Assembly: GCA_963790205.1 (NCBI GenBank)
Contig: CAWBNQ010000003.1
Coordinates: 736,001 to 800,000 of the forward strand
Direction of reading: 5' to 3'
DNA length: 64,000 nt
Origin: Nitrospirota bacterium
Lineage (GTDB): Bacteria; Nitrospirota; UBA9217
In this document: one piece after another, positions 53,301 through 63,772 of the stretch
How the letters are laid out: the number at the start of each line of letters is the position of its first letter
Position numbering within the stretch: position 1 is the first letter of the stretch
The notes under the pieces: generated by a model
Databases searched by the model: none
Seen by the model: the letters and a program-made list of their open reading frames with translations, nothing else
What the model was told of the DNA's origin: nothing
Made by a program: the position numbers and the translations under genes

Positions 53301-54593
53301 GAGTATTTCGCCCTCGACGTTACGGATGAGAACAATCCGCAGTTGTTGTGGGAGTTTTCGGATCCTACCCTCGGGTTCTCAACGTCCGGTCCCGCGGTTG
53401 TCAGGATAGGTTCCCGGACCCCAAACAGCTCGACAACCAGCGCCTTGGATTCAGGCACGAATGGAAGGTGGTTTGTCGTGTTCGGCTCCGGTCCGACAGG
53501 ACCGATAGATGTCGCATCGCAGAAGTTCCAGGCCCACTCTGATCAGGACCTGAAACTTTTCATTCTCGATCTAAAAGGACCCGGCACCGGTGCGTGGACA
53601 CTGAATCAAAATTACTATACAATAGACACGGGGATTCAAAATGCCTTCGCAGGCTCGTTGCTGAATTCAGTTTTTGACAATTATCCCAACTCAGGCGCTG
53701 ATTATCAGGACCGGGCGCTCTATATCCCTTATGTAAAATTGTGCTCCGCTAACTCCACTTACTGTACTGCCAATACCTGGACGGACGGCGGCGTGTTAAG
53801 GCTCCTCACCAACCAGGACCTGAACGGCACTGACGTGAGCGCCACGGGAGCGACAGCGCTTAACCCCGGCAACTGGGCCTTGAGCACGGTCATGAGCGGC
53901 ATCGGCCCGGTTACCTCGGCAGTTGCGAATCTCCTGAATAAAAATACGGGCCAGCTGTGGCTCTATTTCGGCACAGGAAGATACTACTATAGAAGCCCCG
54001 CAGGATCAGACGATCCGAACACACAAAGAAATCTCTTCGGCATCGTTGAGCCGTGCTTTTCGGGCACTGGCTTTTCGAGCGGCTGCACGACCAGCCGTCT
54101 TATAAGCGAGCTGTCGCCTGTGAACACATCAACAACAGCGGGTGTCACCACTTCAAAGGGCTGGTATGTTAATCTTCAGGGTTCAGGCACCTACACCTAT
54201 GACGAGAACAACAACGGCACAACCGCCGACGATGTGGCGAGAAGCTATAATGCTGAGCGTGTCATCACCGACCCGGTTACCTCTCCGGCTGAATATTCCG
54301 TCTTTTTCACGACCTTCGAGCCCTATAACGATCTCTGCGCCATCGGTGGCAAGACCTTTATCTGGGCGCTCAATTATAACACCGGAGGCTCTGCCAGCCA
54401 ATACCTGGTGGGAACGGCCTTGATCCAGGTCTCCACGGGCGCTATCGAACAGATGAACCTGTCGACCGCCTTTACCGACATGGGCCAGAGAAGGACAGGC
54501 GCCATGGAAGGCCTGCCGCCGACGACGCAGGGCCTGAACCTTATGTCGGCGCCGGCCCCGGTACAAAAGGTCCTTCATGTGCGGGAGAAATAA
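50331..54593 (+). CDS. pilY1: Type IV pilus tip adhesin PilY1/PilC
   Basis: Signal peptide, YCQVPPFI, vWA-like DVSGSM, WKLGDIVDSTP, YVGANDGMLHAF, EKWAFIP, YFGTGR and ERVITDP motifs. Confidence 0.92.
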   Translation: MEMKKYIAKGLIFFSILLSFGSSSISFGAAMTDYCQVPPFIGTGGSPNILLVEDVSGSMSWPAYSAIDNGTAIPYNSAQGYEGYFDPSKTYKTQNPSCDPTTTSCLYIETTPTGLPCTHTCSANSCVRNSGSCSMHGQYGSGTGAFGCKTSSNKPYGCCTAITSSGDCNLNTGNYLNWYHMHRIDLTRWAMTGGTPASCTGTSTFNANNCDPELWNQTGNSTKVGAVCNNSLAINDAGTELGGCILLMDDGTQVTVPWSRVNDGLATQFMNLLVQPRLGVMTFDGNSPYVNSHQVYLGDFLASNNNSAAFPYSNFITNINSQSAGGGTPTGLAMWDALNYYAQNPAQYGGFPNQTGSGDRWKNPLFICDGGGGNNCVQDTCARNYVLLMSDGEWNTPSTTIGSSPTCSTTSTSTESADPMVPAYCMHKGFTNAATSTATSVSGVYTVGLFMQSGSAGLQAMENTAMYGSFAYSSPTQIWPGNKTGFPSNSARCGGTTPPTDPSDCGGSNCASGSLCAPLPPSSPDWDQNEDGAPDTFYNASDAINIKQDIMNAVQDILAHATSGTAASVLASGQGSGANLVQATYYPVRKFFNSSVLWTGGLQNLWYYIDPAFNNSSIREDDGDKILNLITDSTHQDNITSFYFDTAEQKAKARLYSSLSTPLGATGSLVATIDFEDLANLWEAGVLLWNRTASDRAIYTPLNASQALTAAANSFSVGAPTPDNTAVLRPLLNTDDTTASAAVNNQLADNIVNYIRGTDLADYIYTVGTSTVGVSYRPRTVQIDLNNDNNITDTSVPVSGVAMNETVPNVWKLGDIVDSTPKIASWAPLNNYDTKWSDSSYKSFISSATYTTRGTVYVGANDGMLHAFNLGTLQYTWSGQNNPREIAKLAGSNLGKEKWAFIPKNVLPYLKYLADPNYCHIHTVDLTPFLVDASINNTAGCSGNYWQCQKDVTSWRTILIGGMKLGGACADTASTCTDCVKTPVTGQGYSEYFALDVTDENNPQLLWEFSDPTLGFSTSGPAVVRIGSRTPNSSTTSALDSGTNGRWFVVFGSGPTGPIDVASQKFQAHSDQDLKLFILDLKGPGTGAWTLNQNYYTIDTGIQNAFAGSLLNSVFDNYPNSGADYQDRALYIPYVKLCSANSTYCTANTWTDGGVLRLLTNQDLNGTDVSATGATALNPGNWALSTVMSGIGPVTSAVANLLNKNTGQLWLYFGTGRYYYRSPAGSDDPNTQRNLFGIVEPCFSGTGFSSGCTTSRLISELSPVNTSTTAGVTTSKGWYVNLQGSGTYTYDENNNGTTADDVARSYNAERVITDPVTSPAEYSVFFTTFEPYNDLCAIGGKTFIWALNYNTGGSASQYLVGTALIQVSTGAIEQMNLSTAFTDMGQRRTGAMEGLPPTTQGLNLMSAPAPVQKVLHVREK

Positions 54594-54597
54594 AGAG

Positions 54598-55089
54598 ATG
54601 AGGGATGAGAACGGTTTTACGTTGATCGAGATGCTCATCACGCTCGCCATCATCGGCATACTGCTCGGGATTGCGGCCATTTCCGCCGGTGCATGGCTTG
54701 AACGGTACCGGGTGGAAGGCCAGACGAAACAGATGTATACCGATCTGATGAATGCACGGGTAAGCGCCATGCAGAGAAACCGGGTTTTTTTCGTGACCCT
54801 GGGGGCGAACCAGTATGCAATCTATGAGGATTCGTGGCCTGCTCCGGACGGAAACGGGAACCTTGATCCGGGAGCTGGACAAGACCGGCTCGTGATGCAG
54901 AAGACCACGCAATATGCCCTCAACTCGAGCGCGGCAAACTTTAATTTTAGCCAAAACGGCCTGGTGTCCTGGAGCAGCGGTACGATCTGGGTCACCTCTA
55001 CGGCAAGCCCGGCTTCCGACTGTATTGCCTTGGCTACTACAAGAATTCTCATGGGGAAAATGAATGGAACGAATTGCATTACACAATAA
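54598..55089 (+). CDS. FimT/FimU-like (GspH family) minor pilin
   Basis: Prepilin cleavage motif G-FTLIE; C-terminal Cys pair. Confidence 0.88.
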   Translation: MRDENGFTLIEMLITLAIIGILLGIAAISAGAWLERYRVEGQTKQMYTDLMNARVSAMQRNRVFFVTLGANQYAIYEDSWPAPDGNGNLDPGAGQDRLVMQKTTQYALNSSAANFNFSQNGLVSWSSGTIWVTSTASPASDCIALATTRILMGKMNGTNCITQ

Positions 55090-55462
55090 GAAGGGCATGA
55101 CGTTGATAGAGGTCCTGATCGCGCTCCTCCTTCTCATGGTCGTAGCGCTGGCGGTGATGCGGACGGCGCTGGTAGGGATGAATGCGAATCTGCAGAATTC
55201 CGAGCGGGACGAGGCGGTGAATGTTGCGGACCTGCGGATGAACGAACTGCGGGACATGCCTTTTGACAACATTGTAAGTGATCTGACGGGCACGACAATA
55301 TCACGAACTTTCCGAGGCGCCACCGTGACCTATACGCAGACGCAAACGGTAACACAGGTCGATACCGGCAATAACACGAAGCAGATAGCCATAACGGTTG
55401 CCTGGCCCTTTGGGGGGCGGACTTATACTCATAGCGTGACAACGATCATGAGGCGGCAATGA
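55064..55462 (+). CDS. pilV: PilV-like minor pilin
   Basis: G-MTLIEVLIAL; position in cluster. Confidence 0.8.
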   Translation: MERIALHNKKGMTLIEVLIALLLLMVVALAVMRTALVGMNANLQNSERDEAVNVADLRMNELRDMPFDNIVSDLTGTTISRTFRGATVTYTQTQTVTQVDTGNNTKQIAITVAWPFGGRTYTHSVTTIMRRQ

Positions 55463-56559
55463 ACAGGCGAAATAAAGGAGTTACCTTGATCGAACTGCTG
55501 ATCGTTCTGGCGATTTTCGGCATCGTTCTGGCGGGGACCTCGCAGATGGTCGTCGGCATGCTGACTACTCACCGGCAGCAGAGCAAGATCGCGGAGAGCA
55601 ATATAGAAGGAATTATCGGCCTTGAGATGCTGCGGCAGGACCTCGGAAAAGCGGGGTTCGGCCTGCCGTGGAACGGATTGACGACGTATACCGAGGCTAC
55701 GGGCAATCCCTATAATTTGAATGATGCGTCGAACCCTCCGCGAGGGATCGTGAGTAAGAATGACGGAGGATGGAACGGCACGGATTATCTGGTGATAAAA
55801 GCCGCAAATGTGGCGACGAATACTGCATGCAACAAATGGACATTCCTTTCACCGGCCAATGTACCAACTGTATGGACGTCGTCCACGTCAACGAGCGATA
55901 ATTTTGCCGACACTGACCGGGTGATCATTCTTTCGCCAGGATCGCCTAGTTCGGAAGGCACCGCAAGAACACTGATAACATCGGGCTCGTTTTTCGCCCA
56001 GTTCGGTTCCACCTCCGCCTTGGCGTCGACTATGACGTCAACAGGAATCGTCTACGGCATCGATCCGGCCACCGACCTGAGGATGCCCTTTAACCGGGCG
56101 GACTTCTATGTCAAGCAGCCGGCCACCGCGATGCCCCAGCGATGCGCTTTGGGAACGGGCATTCTGTATAAAGCGGTCGTGAACCAGAGCGATGGGAATT
56201 TGACGGAAATGCCGCTGCTCGACTGCGTTGCCGATATGCAGGTGATCTACCGTTATGATCCGAACGGCAGCGGATCTGCGTCACTTTCACTTACAAACGA
56301 TATCTCGACCTGGAGCGCCCAGACCATTCGCGACAATGTCAAAGAGGTGAGAGTATATGTTCTGGCGCAGGAAGGCCAGAAAGATCCAAATTTCACCTAT
56401 CCGGGGGCAAACGCCTGTGTTGGCTGCGACTCGACCGTTGGCATTACGGGTTCCCTTGGAAGGCAACCTCAACCTTTCAACTTCTCCGGGATCACTAATT
56501 GGCAAAACTACCGGTGGAAAATTTACACCCTGGTTGTAAAACTGGATAACCTCCTGTGA
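55459..56559 (+). CDS. pilW: PilW-like minor pilin
   Basis: G-VTLIELLI, LRQDLGKAGFG and PLLDCVADMQV motifs. Confidence 0.82.
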   Translation: MNRRNKGVTLIELLIVLAIFGIVLAGTSQMVVGMLTTHRQQSKIAESNIEGIIGLEMLRQDLGKAGFGLPWNGLTTYTEATGNPYNLNDASNPPRGIVSKNDGGWNGTDYLVIKAANVATNTACNKWTFLSPANVPTVWTSSTSTSDNFADTDRVIILSPGSPSSEGTARTLITSGSFFAQFGSTSALASTMTSTGIVYGIDPATDLRMPFNRADFYVKQPATAMPQRCALGTGILYKAVVNQSDGNLTEMPLLDCVADMQVIYRYDPNGSGSASLSLTNDISTWSAQTIRDNVKEVRVYVLAQEGQKDPNFTYPGANACVGCDSTVGITGSLGRQPQPFNFSGITNWQNYRWKIYTLVVKLDNLL

Positions 56560-56677
56560 ATCGGGAAGAGGCATGGTGGTCATATATATGAAAAACGTGG
56601 ATACGACAAAAAAACGGGAAACGCGCTTCAGTGTTTTCATCGAACCGTCTGCGGGTGATGGAGGGGAGAAGATTGCC

Positions 56678-57322
56678 TTGCCAACGGGTATTAAATCCGA
56701 AAAAGGGGTCGTCCTCGTCGTGGTCCTGGTGATGTCCGCGGTGGTGCTTGTGGTCATGACGGCGTTGATCTATATGATCACTTCCGGAACGCAAATCTCC
56801 GGTTTGCAGAAAAGATATAAGACGTCCCTTGAAGCGTCCAGGGGCGGCAGCGACCTTTTTTATCAAGTTGTCGGGTCAAGAGGGATACCCTTAACGCTGA
56901 CGGGCGTGAATCCATTTATTCTTGGCGCGCCGGCATGCAGCGGCACCGATATTTACACCGGAGCGACGTATACGGGATTTCAAGCCAAACTCATGACGTC
57001 TTCGGCGACATGGTCCGCAGGTTGTAATAGTACTCTGAACATCAATCTGAACGATGGTACTCCCGCTCCCTATGATATGATGCTGGCAATCGGGACATCA
57101 CCCCAATACAACTATTACGCTAAAATAGTTGGTGCCATACAGGGGAATTCAGCCTCACTCGGGAGTACCTCGCTTTATACGGGCAGTGTGATGACCGGAT
57201 CAAGCGGGGCCGGCGCCATCCCGGTAGTGAGCCAGCCCTATCTGTACGCAATAGAGGTGGACACGGAAAACGCCACGAATTCTGCTGAGCGGGCGAAATT
57301 ATCCATTCTTTATCAGTATTGA
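56678..57322 (+). CDS. pilX: PilX-like minor pilin (probable TTG start; ORF extends to 56573)
   Basis: EKG-VVLVVVL without Glu5, typical of PilX; follows pilW. Confidence 0.78.
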   Translation: MPTGIKSEKGVVLVVVLVMSAVVLVVMTALIYMITSGTQISGLQKRYKTSLEASRGGSDLFYQVVGSRGIPLTLTGVNPFILGAPACSGTDIYTGATYTGFQAKLMTSSATWSAGCNSTLNINLNDGTPAPYDMMLAIGTSPQYNYYAKIVGAIQGNSASLGSTSLYTGSVMTGSSGAGAIPVVSQPYLYAIEVDTENATNSAERAKLSILYQY

Positions 57323-57397
57323 GGCAGGCGCGGATCACTATGTTTCTGCCGACACAATAACATCACTAGCATTCTTTCCTCTTTTCCCGAAAATCCT

Positions 57398-58303
57398 ATG
57401 CGTGGACTGACTTGTGCAGTGCTTATAGTGTTTGTTCTTTCCTGCTCTTCTGAAAAGCAGGCAGAGCGCACCCGAAATCCATCTGCGGGGCCCGGCGTTG
57501 CCGGGACCACACAACCGGTTTCTCCTCGTACAAAGGAACCCTATGTACTGGAAATCTCACCGAAAGCGGCCTCTCGGGATTCAACGGTAAATCTCATCTT
57601 TACGGGCTTTGCCGCAAGTGACGCAAAGATCGAGTGGCTCCTGAACGGAGCGCCGGAGGAAAGCGCTTCGCCGAACCAATTTACGTTATCGCGGGCGAGA
57701 AAGGGTGACACGCTCCAGGCGAAGGCGATCATTCAGGGCCGGGAGATACTGTCCAACATGATCGAAATCGTGAATGCGGCCCCCGAGATCACCAGTATTA
57801 AACTTCTCGCTGAAATTGTTAAGCCCGGCGACGCTCTGGGCGTAGCGGTCACGGGAAGCGATGCCGATGGAGACACAGTAATGTTTCTGTACGAATGGAC
57901 GATCAACGGCGAACCCGCGGGGAACGAAGAGAGAATAGGGGGGCCGGTAAAAAGAGGGGATCGGGTTTCCGTGAAGGTCACGCCTTTTGACGGGGAGAGC
58001 TACGGTCGTCCCGTCGTGCTGGACAGGGAAATCCAAAATATGCCTCCAATAATTCAAGAACACAGGGAATTTCAATTCGATGGGAAACTGTACACGTATC
58101 AGGTGAAGGCATCAGACCCGGACGGTGATCCTCTCGCCTACGCAATCGAGTCGCCGGCGGAAGGCATGATGATCGATAAATCAAGCGGGTTACTAACCTG
58201 GAATGTGCCTGCTGAATTTAAAGGCAAGAAAAACGTATCCGTCATTGTGACAGACGGACACGGCGGCATTGCGAGGTATGTTTTAAATATAACCATTCAA
58301 TAA
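57398..58303 (+). CDS. Lipoprotein with Ig-like/cadherin-like repeats
   Basis: Lipobox VLSC; NAAPEI...SDADGD and NMPPII...ASDPDGDPL.Y...VTDGHGG repeats. Confidence 0.75.
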   Translation: MRGLTCAVLIVFVLSCSSEKQAERTRNPSAGPGVAGTTQPVSPRTKEPYVLEISPKAASRDSTVNLIFTGFAASDAKIEWLLNGAPEESASPNQFTLSRARKGDTLQAKAIIQGREILSNMIEIVNAAPEITSIKLLAEIVKPGDALGVAVTGSDADGDTVMFLYEWTINGEPAGNEERIGGPVKRGDRVSVKVTPFDGESYGRPVVLDREIQNMPPIIQEHREFQFDGKLYTYQVKASDPDGDPLAYAIESPAEGMMIDKSSGLLTWNVPAEFKGKKNVSVIVTDGHGGIARYVLNITIQ

Positions 58304-58610
58304 AATGAAGCGTTAACATGGGCGTTACAAGCCATTTTGCTTTCTTCTTCTTCGCTTCTTTTTATCACTCATAAATCCCGCGAACCCGTGATTTTCTTCG
58401 GTTGTTTCTCTCTGACGACCGGTTCATTATCCGCTCTCCGAATACCCCGAAAATACCCGCTAACGGGTATGTACACTCGCCTGCCGTTGCGAGTAAAATC
58501 AAACCCTGAATTTGAAGCTTTTTACATAGCGTCCGGCAATCCATAGTTGCCCGGAGGGAGCCCCGTTTTTTTTGAATGACGAACCTTGCATCGAGGAGAG
58601 GTGATCAATC

Positions 58611-59111
58611 ATGAAAAATAGCGGATTTACCATGCTCGAAATTATCGTCGTCATGGCCATTCTTGGCACCCTGCTCGGCATTGCCGCCATGTCCGGACGC
58701 GACTGGTTGGAACGGTACCGGGTGGAAGGGCAGACAAAAGAGCTGTATGCAGATTTGATGAATGCAAGGGTAAGCGCCCTGCAGAAAAACCGGGTGTTTT
58801 TTGTGGCTCTGCAGACAGCAAACCAGTATGCAATCTATGAGGACACGCATCCTTCTCCTGACGGGGATGAAGACCTGCAACCGACGCGAGACACGCTTGT
58901 GATGCAGAAGCCCACGCGCTTCCCGCTTCAGCCTCGTCTGGCTTTAGGCCGCACAACCTTTAGCTTCGGGAAAAACGGCCTGGTGTCGCTCAATGGCTCG
59001 ATCCGGTTTTATTCATCCGCAGATCCTTTCTCCGACTGTATTAAACTTTTTTCAACAAGGATACTCATGGGGAAATGGGACGGATCGTCATCGACATGCA
59101 TTGCTCAATAA
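58611..59111 (+). CDS. Second FimT/FimU-like minor pilin (paralogue of 54598-55089)
   Basis: G-FTMLE; WLERYRVEGQTK..Y.DLMNARVSA.Q.NRVFFV shared with the first copy. Confidence 0.88.
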   Translation: MKNSGFTMLEIIVVMAILGTLLGIAAMSGRDWLERYRVEGQTKELYADLMNARVSALQKNRVFFVALQTANQYAIYEDTHPSPDGDEDLQPTRDTLVMQKPTRFPLQPRLALGRTTFSFGKNGLVSLNGSIRFYSSADPFSDCIKLFSTRILMGKWDGSSSTCIAQ

Positions 59112-61508: not shown

Positions 61509-62150
61509 GTGAGTGCTATCCGCATAATGATCGCTGATAATGATACCGGACAGGTGGAGACCTTGAGAGCGGCGCTCGATCACGGGGATTTTGAGATATT
61601 GTCGGTTGTCTCGGCGCGGGAAACCGCGATCAAGCAGCTGTCTATCGAGCCCGATATCATTCTCCTGAACCCCGAGATCCTGAAACAGCGCACGCTCTCG
61701 CGTTTCATACACTCGGTGCAGAGCAAGTCTCCTTCTACCCGCGTCGTCTGCGTGCTGAAGGACGCTCCGTCCGAAGAAAACGCCATTGCCGATATCAAGG
61801 CCGGCATCAGGGGTTTCATCAAGACCACGGACCAGGCTACAAACATTGCCAAGGCCCTCCGGTCGGTGTACGGCGGTGAAATATGGGCAGAGCGCAGGAT
61901 TCTGGAGAAGGCCATTGCCAACCCCATGCTTCTGCCGGAGACGCTGCAGGCCCACGTGCCGGGCTTGCCGCCGCTGACCAACAGGGAAATGGAAATGCTT
62001 ACCCTGGTTCTGCAAGGCGCTACCAACAGAGAAATCGCCGACCGGAGCAAAATAAGCGAGAGGACGGTGAAAACTCATTTGTACCGGGTCTATCGGAAGC
62101 TCAGGGTCAAGAGCAGGACCAAGGCAATAGCTTTGCTGTCTCATGCATAA
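61509..62150 (+). CDS. LuxR/NarL-family regulator with an atypical (pseudo) receiver domain
   Basis: LTNREMEML...GATNREIA...ISERTVKTHL HTH; receiver reads DIILLN instead of DxxLLD. Confidence 0.88.
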   Translation: MSAIRIMIADNDTGQVETLRAALDHGDFEILSVVSARETAIKQLSIEPDIILLNPEILKQRTLSRFIHSVQSKSPSTRVVCVLKDAPSEENAIADIKAGIRGFIKTTDQATNIAKALRSVYGGEIWAERRILEKAIANPMLLPETLQAHVPGLPPLTNREMEMLTLVLQGATNREIADRSKISERTVKTHLYRVYRKLRVKSRTKAIALLSHA

Positions 62151-62184
62151 ATTTGCAGTTCCATAAAATACGACTTTGGGGCCA

Positions 62185-62212
62185 TTGACACCGGATGATT
62201 AACTGCTATGTT
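62185..62212 (+). promoter_or_regulatory. Sigma-70 promoter for the candidate ncRNA
   Basis: TTGACA-N16-TATGTT with a TGn extended -10. Confidence 0.6.
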
Positions 62213-62218
62213 TAAAAC

Positions 62219-62440
62219 AACGACTGTGCTGTTGGAAGGCTTTGATCGGGCTTGAGGCTGGCGCAACGGCGGCTGACTTTACCCCCCCTATGAGCAGAGT
62301 GGATGCCGCGCTTGAGTCTCCCAACGAGATGCCGAAAGGCCGAACGAGCCGTGGTAAAAACATCAGTGCGCGTGCCAACAGAGTACAACAGTACAGCCAT
62401 TAAGGCGTCCCGACGAGTCGGGGCGCCTTGTTTTTTCTTC
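62219..62440 (+). ncRNA. Candidate stand-alone structured non-coding RNA, family not recognised
   Basis: Own promoter and terminator; 11-bp 5'/3' closing helix; several internal helices, a GAAA tetraloop and possible pseudoknots; no credible sense ORF. Confidence 0.65.
62402..62439 (+). terminator. Intrinsic terminator
   Basis: AAGGCGTCCCGA-CGAG-TCGGGGCGCCTT followed by GTTTTTTCTT. Confidence 0.85.
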
Positions 62441-62503
62441 CTCTGATGAAAGACGCCGCGGTTGGTTCTTGACGCGGACATGGAATGACGGTAGGGTATC
62501 TTT

Positions 62504-63772
62504 ATGACCGCAGCGCTCATTGTTCTTTACCTGCTTGTTGCCGGGGCCGGTTATTGGCTTAAATATCTCAATCTCACCTATTTAAAAACGCACGGCAAGA
62601 CAGTACCGTCTGAATTCGAGGGGACCGTCGACCCTGCGCTCCTGCAAAAAATAACCGCTTACACCTTCGAAAACAGCCGCACCGGTATCGTAGAATCAAT
62701 CATCGGCAATGTGCTCCTTCTTTTTTTCCTCTTCGGAGGCCTGCTCGGCGCCTATGACCGCTGGATCGCTTCCCTTTCCGGCTCTTTTATCACGGCCGGA
62801 GCGCTTTTTGTCCTCATCCTTCTTGCGGCGGAAACGCTTATCGACATTCCCTTCGGCCTCTACCGGAATTTCAGGATCGAGAACCGGTACGGGTTCAATG
62901 CCATGACCGTGAAGCTCTGGTCCACCGATCTGGTAAAAGCAGTCGCAATTTCCGCCGTCCTGGGAACGCTGGTCACGGCAGCGGCATTGTCCATCGTACA
63001 GGCAACCCCTGCCTGGTGGTGGCTCTGGGTATGGGCCTTCCTGCTGGTCTTCGGCATTTTCATGATGTATATATCTCCGTATGTGATCGAGCCGCTCTTT
63101 TTTAAGTTCGAACCGGTCAAATCCGAGGGATTGGAAAGGGATATCCGGCAGCTCATGGAACGCGCCGGACTCAAGGTGAGCCGCGTGTTCCAGGTCGACG
63201 CTTCCCGGCGGAGCCGCCACTCCAATGCCTATTTTACCGGAATAGGCCGGGTAAAGCGCATTGTGCTTTTCGACACGCTGATCGAACAGATGACGGAGAA
63301 CGAGCTTCTCGCGGTCCTTGCCCACGAAGTGGGTCATTGGAAGAAGCGGCACGTGCTCAAGCGCATGGTCCTTACCGAGGCGTCCGCCTTTCTCGGGCTG
63401 CTCGTTGCCTACTGCCTGCTCGGATGGGCCGGGCTGCCGCATATGATCGGCCTGGAGGACGCTTCATTCTATGCGCGGATCGTCATTGTGGGGTTCCTCG
63501 GTTCCCTTGCGCTATTTCCGATCACACCGCTCTTTAGTTATCTCTCAAGAAAAGACGAACGCGAGGCCGATCGCTTTGCGGCTGAGCTTACCGGCCGTCC
63601 CGAGGCCATGGCCTCGGCGCTTGTCAAGCTTTCACGGGAGAACCTCTCCAATCTTCATCCGCATCCGCTGTATGCGAAATTCTATTATTCCCACCCTCCG
63701 GTCGTTGAGAGGATAAGAAACCTGAAAAAGGCCGGCGAAGGTAACCAGCAGGCAGAAGGCAGTAAACAGTAA
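62504..63772 (+). CDS. M48 family (Ste24-like) zinc metalloprotease
   Basis: DASRRSRHSNAYFTG, HEVGH, EREAD and YSHPP motifs. Confidence 0.92.
   Translation: MTAALIVLYLLVAGAGYWLKYLNLTYLKTHGKTVPSEFEGTVDPALLQKITAYTFENSRTGIVESIIGNVLLLFFLFGGLLGAYDRWIASLSGSFITAGALFVLILLAAETLIDIPFGLYRNFRIENRYGFNAMTVKLWSTDLVKAVAISAVLGTLVTAAALSIVQATPAWWWLWVWAFLLVFGIFMMYISPYVIEPLFFKFEPVKSEGLERDIRQLMERAGLKVSRVFQVDASRRSRHSNAYFTGIGRVKRIVLFDTLIEQMTENELLAVLAHEVGHWKKRHVLKRMVLTEASAFLGLLVAYCLLGWAGLPHMIGLEDASFYARIVIVGFLGSLALFPITPLFSYLSRKDEREADRFAAELTGRPEAMASALVKLSRENLSNLHPHPLYAKFYYSHPPVVERIRNLKKAGEGNQQAEGSKQ

Follow-up and report, generated by a model that had tools for sequence, protein, structure and literature searches.

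The window analysed here, a whole stretch of 64,000 nucleotides, contains a predicted RNA gene between the gene of a NarL/LuxR-family regulator (61509-62150) and that of an M48 protease of the CAAX/Ste24 type (62504-63772), a neighbour outside the RNA unit; these genes and all elements of the unit are on the forward strand. The receiver domain of the regulator is atypical: the phospho-acceptor Asp is replaced by Asn. Downstream of the regulator gene a conserved operator-like site, AAAATACGACTTT (62165-62177), forms a pseudo-palindrome 7 nt before the -35, in an activator position. The promoter of the RNA is of the sigma70 type (62185-62212), and both the TTGACA at 62185 and, at a spacing of 16 nt, the extended -10 (TG-n-TATGTT) ending at 62212 are present as claimed in the first-pass annotation. 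Judged from the -10 and the U tract, the predicted RNA extends from 62219 to 62436 (approximately 215-220 nt). A closing helix, P1 (62224-62234 with 62386-62396), surrounds an irregular rod and a variable 3' side arm (62224-62396). The rod carries a distal GCGGC/GCCGC stem with a short inner stem of the ACUU/AGAGU type (62269-62309), an apical loop with a run of seven C (62282-62288; family consensus ACUUCUUCCCCCCC), which we propose as the seed, and a conserved CCA-n-C-A-n-GAUGC motif (62321-62332) in an internal loop that is A/C-rich and weakly paired. The unit ends in an intrinsic terminator, GGCGTCYCGA...TCGGGRCGCC followed by a U tract (62401-62436), with a loop of variable length among homologues; the 13-bp terminator stem (62401-62430) described earlier was confirmed, with pair probabilities of 0.74-1.0 in the ensemble of the window sequence. 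In many homologues (terminators of L062-L108) the terminator loop is extended by 25-45 nt, often with a GAGAGA-type purine stretch.

The M48 gene has a separate promoter (62469-62497) that ends a few bases before the ATG, so that its mRNA would be leaderless. This appears to be the case family-wide: at 32 of 38 M48 loci a -35/-10 promoter was recognised whose end lies 5-8 nt upstream of the ATG. Elsewhere in the window (54577-59111) lies a cluster of ORFs whose N-termini, read by eye, are prepilin-like (minor pilin-like); two of these ORFs are alike, and a tungstate-type ABC permease and maf come next.

No credible ORF is found within the unit, in agreement with the first-pass annotation: a 37-codon ATG frame from 62290 is without a ribosome-binding site and is not kept in homologues. 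A small peptide was rejected as the product, as a ribosome-binding site with an ORF of at least 10 amino acids occurs in 11 of 50 sequences and the lengths differ.

A DNA search of 60 genomes identified full-length relatives of the RNA in two, and the partial matches proved to be syntenic. A search with the regulator gave a match in 50 of 64 family genomes, and a promoter-RNA-terminator unit was located downstream of it at 38 of these 50 loci (37 by pattern and one by the RNA model). The homologues are 44-68% identical to the copy in the window, which occurs once in its genome, as had been claimed. With the RNA model, matches at E <=0.1 were obtained in 40 of the 64 genomes of the family, and in 38 at E<1e-4, most of these being in the training set. 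Elsewhere in the phylum no match was convincing: outside the family, 123 genomes gave 15 weak partial matches (E 0.05-0.65), of which the two inspected were both spurious. As scoring was limited to 17 candidates per genome here, remote forms of the RNA may be missed. The distribution of the regulator is similar: 23 of 27 genomes of the family have it, among the 123 others only matches of 30-35% were obtained, in two genomes, and almost all named records with the regulator carry Nitrospirota/Nitrospirae in their titles. A pattern scan of metagenomes returned at least 120 loci; among the matches listed there were 14 full-length copies of the RNA, 12 of them with the regulator in the DNA examined, and none of three pattern loci on viral contigs matched the RNA. 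In three genomes of one genus the RNA is located between maf and xerD with no adjacent regulator, and two of these have no regulator match at all.

Further variation was observed at individual loci. At L093, L096, L097, L098 (genus g17) and L082 remnants of a decayed promoter or of the C-run persist while the body of the RNA is deleted, and other genomes of these genera retain the RNA, so that these represent natural losses. One genome (G077; L070 and L108) contains two regulator-RNA-M48 modules, through duplication or contamination (6%), and a full copy with regulator (L148:1189-1372) is present on a contig titled 'uncultured archaeon', which is probably mis-binned.

The RNA does not correspond to a catalogued family. 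At gathering level the window is without an Rfam match and the RNA without a relevant one; at E up to 10 only three chance matches appeared, on the terminator or downstream, and 13 homologous loci searched at E up to 5 gave none on the RNA. The models of the 6C, sX13, RsaE and RepG families likewise did not match, at E up to 10 for the window and up to 5 for the 13 loci. The earlier view that this is not SRP RNA, RNase P RNA, tmRNA or 6S RNA is borne out by a canonical copy of each elsewhere in the genome. A divergent 6S RNA was rejected in view of the canonical 6S gene (97.7 bits) and the lack of an RF00013 match to the RNA, and conversely the RNA model did not match any of five 6S loci. Our literature search, which covered sources other than subscription journals and bioRxiv supplements, found no paper describing this RNA.

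All of the complementary segments quoted in the first-pass annotation are found where it placed them and can pair as described, but not all of the proposed helices are supported. The 11-bp closing helix is well supported (probability 0.95-1.0 in the window) and covaries, with both sides changing in 9 of 12 pairs among 33 sequences and in 6 of 12 among 18 further ones. Only this helix and the terminator are firm in the ensemble of the window sequence itself. The GCGGC/GCCGC stem is conserved, with 86-95% of cells paired and few double changes, but reaches only 0.39 in the window ensemble, and GGCTT/GAGCC (62238-62242 with 62346-62350) is likely in the window (0.33-0.80) but only loosely kept in homologues (65-71% paired). 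The GGCTTGAG/CTTGAGTC helix as drawn has a probability of 0.0 in the window ensemble, and the GCC-GAAA-GGC hairpin a probability of 0.05, with 44% pairing in homologues; neither is supported.

In folding energy, the window copy taken alone lies only moderately below its shuffles (z -1.8); the mean across homologues is -3.4, and 38 of 49 fall under -2. In the 33-sequence alignment, from which four divergent copies (E 5e-4 to 6e-3) were left out, the 20 pairs tested hold in 88% of cells and 12 of them change on both sides; none of 500 shuffles and no slid register came near this result. For 18 distinct sequences outside the model, aligned to it and including some near-identical to the training set, kin not being independent, 94% of cells are paired and nine pairs change on both sides. 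Most of the covariation is found in P1, and the distal stem is largely invariant. Homologues share a rod shape: from the closing helix the rod runs through a variable middle stem and the A/C-rich asymmetric loop with the CCA-n-CA-n-GAUGC motif to the GCGGC stem, followed by a short inner stem and by the C-rich apical loop; its 3' side arm varies among homologues. Collection of homologues and a test of covariation had been suggested as checks on the RNA gene; homologues were found and the closing helix covaries. Together with the synteny, the conservation of promoter and terminator and the absence of an Rfam match, this upholds the original proposal of a free-standing structured RNA of unrecognised family. 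On comparative sequence evidence, we conclude that the locus is a real, uncatalogued and family-restricted non-coding RNA gene of one uncultured Nitrospirota group.

The first-pass annotation considered a ribozyme-like RNA with three pseudoknots, or a riboswitch or attenuator for the M48 protease. The complementarities on which these readings were based do exist in the window copy. However, for the three proposed pseudoknots the share of paired cells in homologues is 41%, 21% and 47%, and the whole set tested is 44.2% paired, against 43.2% in shuffles. As the 3' domain aligns poorly, a second, alignment-free test was performed on 49 sequences, in which the longest loop-to-3' helix averaged 5.12, against 5.03 after shuffling. 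The core contains 44 six-bp helices (G-U allowed), compared to about 33 in shuffled sequence, and such complementarities are therefore commonplace. With crossing pairs not conserved and at chance level with and without alignment, the pseudoknotted ribozyme was rejected. In the case of the protease, the RNA is upstream of the M48 gene in 29 of 38 loci, as expected of a leader, but the gene has a promoter of its own in 32 of 38 loci and the two occur independently, with nine loci each way in which one partner is present without the other: no M48 match is found in the DNA examined at 9 of 38 RNA loci, and M48 is present at 9 of 12 regulator loci without RNA. The RNA therefore holds no fixed place in the leader of a regulated gene. 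The alternative helix proposed for attenuation has a near-zero probability in the window ensemble, and its partner is found in 1 of 33 sequences, that of the genome of the window. When this helix is forced, the terminator still forms (-79 vs. -83 kcal/mol), and opening the terminator costs 21 kcal/mol. We therefore regard control of M48 by a riboswitch or attenuator, like a ribozyme, as extremely unlikely.

The promoter region suggests how the RNA may be regulated. In homologues anchored on TTGAC, the TG of the extended -10 and its T/A/T positions are each kept in 34 of 36 cases. The operator-like site, overlooked in the first-pass annotation, recurs as AAAT(A/G)C(G/A)ACTTT in 30 of 37 RNA promoters, always 7 nt upstream of the -35; it is absent from all three RNA copies without an adjacent regulator and also from seven regulator-linked copies. 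A weight matrix of the site has its best match in the genome at 62165-62177 itself, and the genome scan revealed no clear regulon. The next-best matches are G000:C3:430372 (reverse strand) and C14:271468 (forward strand), the former being followed by a promoter-like TG-n-TATAAA, with a spacing 2 nt off, and by a universal-stress-like ORF. The occurrence of TTTACCCCCCC before the -35 of the regulator's own promoter in the window was dismissed as coincidence, since homologues lack it there. The neighbouring NarL/LuxR regulator is probably the activator of the RNA, acting through the upstream site. Its homologues share a near-invariant WAERR stretch, and at the phospho-acceptor position (54) 33 of 47 have N and 8 of 47 have D. 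The best NCBIfam match is CsgD, far under the cut-off, and VpsT is among the PDB relatives; a c-di-GMP input resembling that of VpsT is conceivable.

As no terminator-like site is listed between the regulator gene and the RNA, the regulator mRNA probably also ends with this RNA. In a rival reading, the RNA would be a structured element of the 3' UTR through which the stability of this mRNA is controlled in cis. Its place immediately downstream of the regulator, at 38 of 50 loci, would fit, as would metatranscriptome contigs. A small part of the stretch is represented in fifteen RNA runs, of which four were examined, as contigs. In each of the four, contigs of relatives span the RNA wholly or in part, and contigs bridge regulator and RNA, although a contig does not demonstrate a single transcript. 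A 204-nt contig of a relative (X3) spans approximately 62228-62431, matching the predicted RNA. The M48 gene is uncovered in the four runs and RNA depth is higher in X1 and X3, but contigs cannot rank expression; as they carry neither strand nor ends and DNA may be present, their cover is only a weak hint of expression. Against the UTR element stand the conserved promoter of the RNA's own and its retention in the three genomes without the adjacent gene, by which the RNA is not merely a UTR element; we consider a purely cis-acting role very improbable.

The most conserved feature of the RNA, likewise missed in the first-pass annotation, is the run of seven C at 62282-62288. At least six C are present in 45 of 50 sequences, the last three C and the following three bases have a computed unpaired probability of 0.87-0.92, and sequence conservation is highest on the unpaired run; 24 nt around it are identical between G000 and G025, the whole RNAs being 73% identical. 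The seeds fall into classes, among them CUUUAC-C7, ACUUCUU-C7 and CUUA-CCCUCUU. In the internal-loop motif C is found in 33 of 33, A in 32 of 33 and C in 32 of 33 sequences, about half of it unpaired, and this loop may be a contact for a protein, possibly Hfq. Hfq is encoded in 59 of 64 family genomes; in G000 two tandem Hfq-domain matches over the cut-off (C11:119724-120237) are found besides the main hfq gene at C3:892980. Because the exposed, anti-Shine-Dalgarno-like C-run is conserved, Hfq is widespread and no CsrA is found in G000, we favour a base-pairing RNA: somewhat more probably than all other readings taken together, it is a trans-acting small RNA that presents a C-rich loop on a closed rod. 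In this model the NarL/LuxR-type neighbour would bind upstream of the -35 and switch the RNA on, the C-run and its 5' pyrimidines, a look-alike of the anti-Shine-Dalgarno sequence, would pair with ribosome-binding sites that are rich in G, on several mRNAs, and this pairing would block initiation. Protection of the RNA could come from the closed rod, and the A/C-rich internal loop and the U tail may be the places where Hfq assists.

The search for targets gave none that withstood the controls. A genome-wide ranking of 3852 script-called G000 genes showed no gain over seeds with shuffled flanks (best hybrid energy -33.7, vs. -33.5 +/- 2.2). Ranked highest were an OmpL-like porin encoded in a nitrogen cluster and a c7 cytochrome with 11 contiguous pairs over the ribosome-binding site. 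In 10000 permutations, matched pairs of RNA and leader had no advantage over mismatched pairs for the regulator (7228), hfq (7686) or a thioredoxin-like gene (6113). The corresponding values are 880 of 10000 for the c7 cytochrome (1661 without G000) and 274 of 10000 for the porin (772 without G000), and none of the five candidates is significant without G000. The complement of an 11-mer occurred at 22 sites in three genomes, against 18 for a control pattern, with no evident shared gene, and genes with a G5 leader were not enriched for haem or signal-peptide proteins. The leader of the c7 triheme cytochrome contains at least five G in 21 of 29 homologues (L376-L405), compared to 170 of 3852 G000 genes, but this G-run is equally common in genomes with the RNA (15/20) and without detected RNA (6/9); as it was chosen after ranking, the c7 cytochrome is a lead only.

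An exposed, conserved C-run without a demonstrable mRNA target would, with Hfq present, fit equally a sponge for another small RNA with a G-rich seed. The likeness of the loop to an anti-Shine-Dalgarno sequence points toward mRNAs instead, and we judge a sponge to be improbable.

The first-pass annotation also raised protein binding, which survives as a minority possibility, appreciable but clearly second to base pairing. As a decoy or scaffold, the RNA could use the A/C-rich internal loop and the C-loop of its rod to engage RNA polymerase (like 6S or Ms1), Hfq (as a sponge), the pseudo-receiver regulator or a protein that binds poly(C). Its length and closed ends resemble 6S RNA (RF00013), a rod of approximately 180 nt with paired ends and an internal loop; here too a conserved motif sits in a weakly paired internal loop, no co-varying mRNA target was found, and the phospho-acceptor is missing from most copies of the regulator. 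Yet canonical 6S RNA is encoded elsewhere, with no model match either way, and the conserved part of this RNA is the apical loop. In 6S RNA two long stems flank a large central bubble; many homologues of the present RNA are predicted to have an asymmetric, weakly paired loop, but a short distal arm, and this short arm and the apical-loop conservation are unlike 6S. A CsrB/Rsm-type decoy was rejected, with about two GGA motifs per RNA (mean 1.9) and no CsrA (PF02599) found in G000, which is 98% complete. A more specific proposal is doubtful: that the ligand is a protein and not mRNA, with the internal CCA-n-CA-n-GAUGC loop and the C-loop binding either RNA polymerase, which would make this a second 6S-like RNA without homology to 6S, or the phosphorylation-independent NarL-type regulator that shares its distribution, to form an RNA-gated feedback switch.

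If the RNA is a base-pairing regulator with a C-rich loop, as we favour, it has functional counterparts in other phyla. The 6C (B11) RNA of Actinobacteria is described as pairing directly with several mRNAs through C-rich loops (PMC6486639); 6C has several such loops, in contrast to the single C-loop here, on a closed rod of 170 nt in an Hfq-bearing host. The apical C-rich loops of sX13 of Xanthomonas (PMC3771888) and the apical C-rich loop of RepG (HPnc5490) of Helicobacter (PMC8295292) are described as repressing mRNAs with G-rich motifs near the start. Neither matches this RNA in sequence, and in sX13 three stem-loops are combined with a 5' region that is unstructured, whereas the 5' end here is buried in the closing helix. 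RsaE, FsrA and the streptococcal csRNAs are presented as exposing a C-rich or anti-Shine-Dalgarno-like single strand, the csRNAs being driven by a response regulator (PMC4152353). These RNAs are shorter and belong to Firmicutes; here the regulator is mostly of the pseudo-receiver type and encoded immediately upstream. Compared to the known C-loop RNAs, the present RNA is longer, more closed and has a single loop.

Almost no small RNAs have been described in Nitrospirota. Three Rfam small RNA families are listed for Nitrospirae (PMC9029176). The locus adds a well-bounded module of regulator, operator and RNA in an uncultured lineage, and its natural losses allow comparison. With the ribozyme and riboswitch readings failing, no new kind of chemistry is implied. 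If the RNA does act in trans through its C-rich loop, it would add a further case in which C-loop riboregulation arose independently, here on an unusual scaffold, the closed rod.
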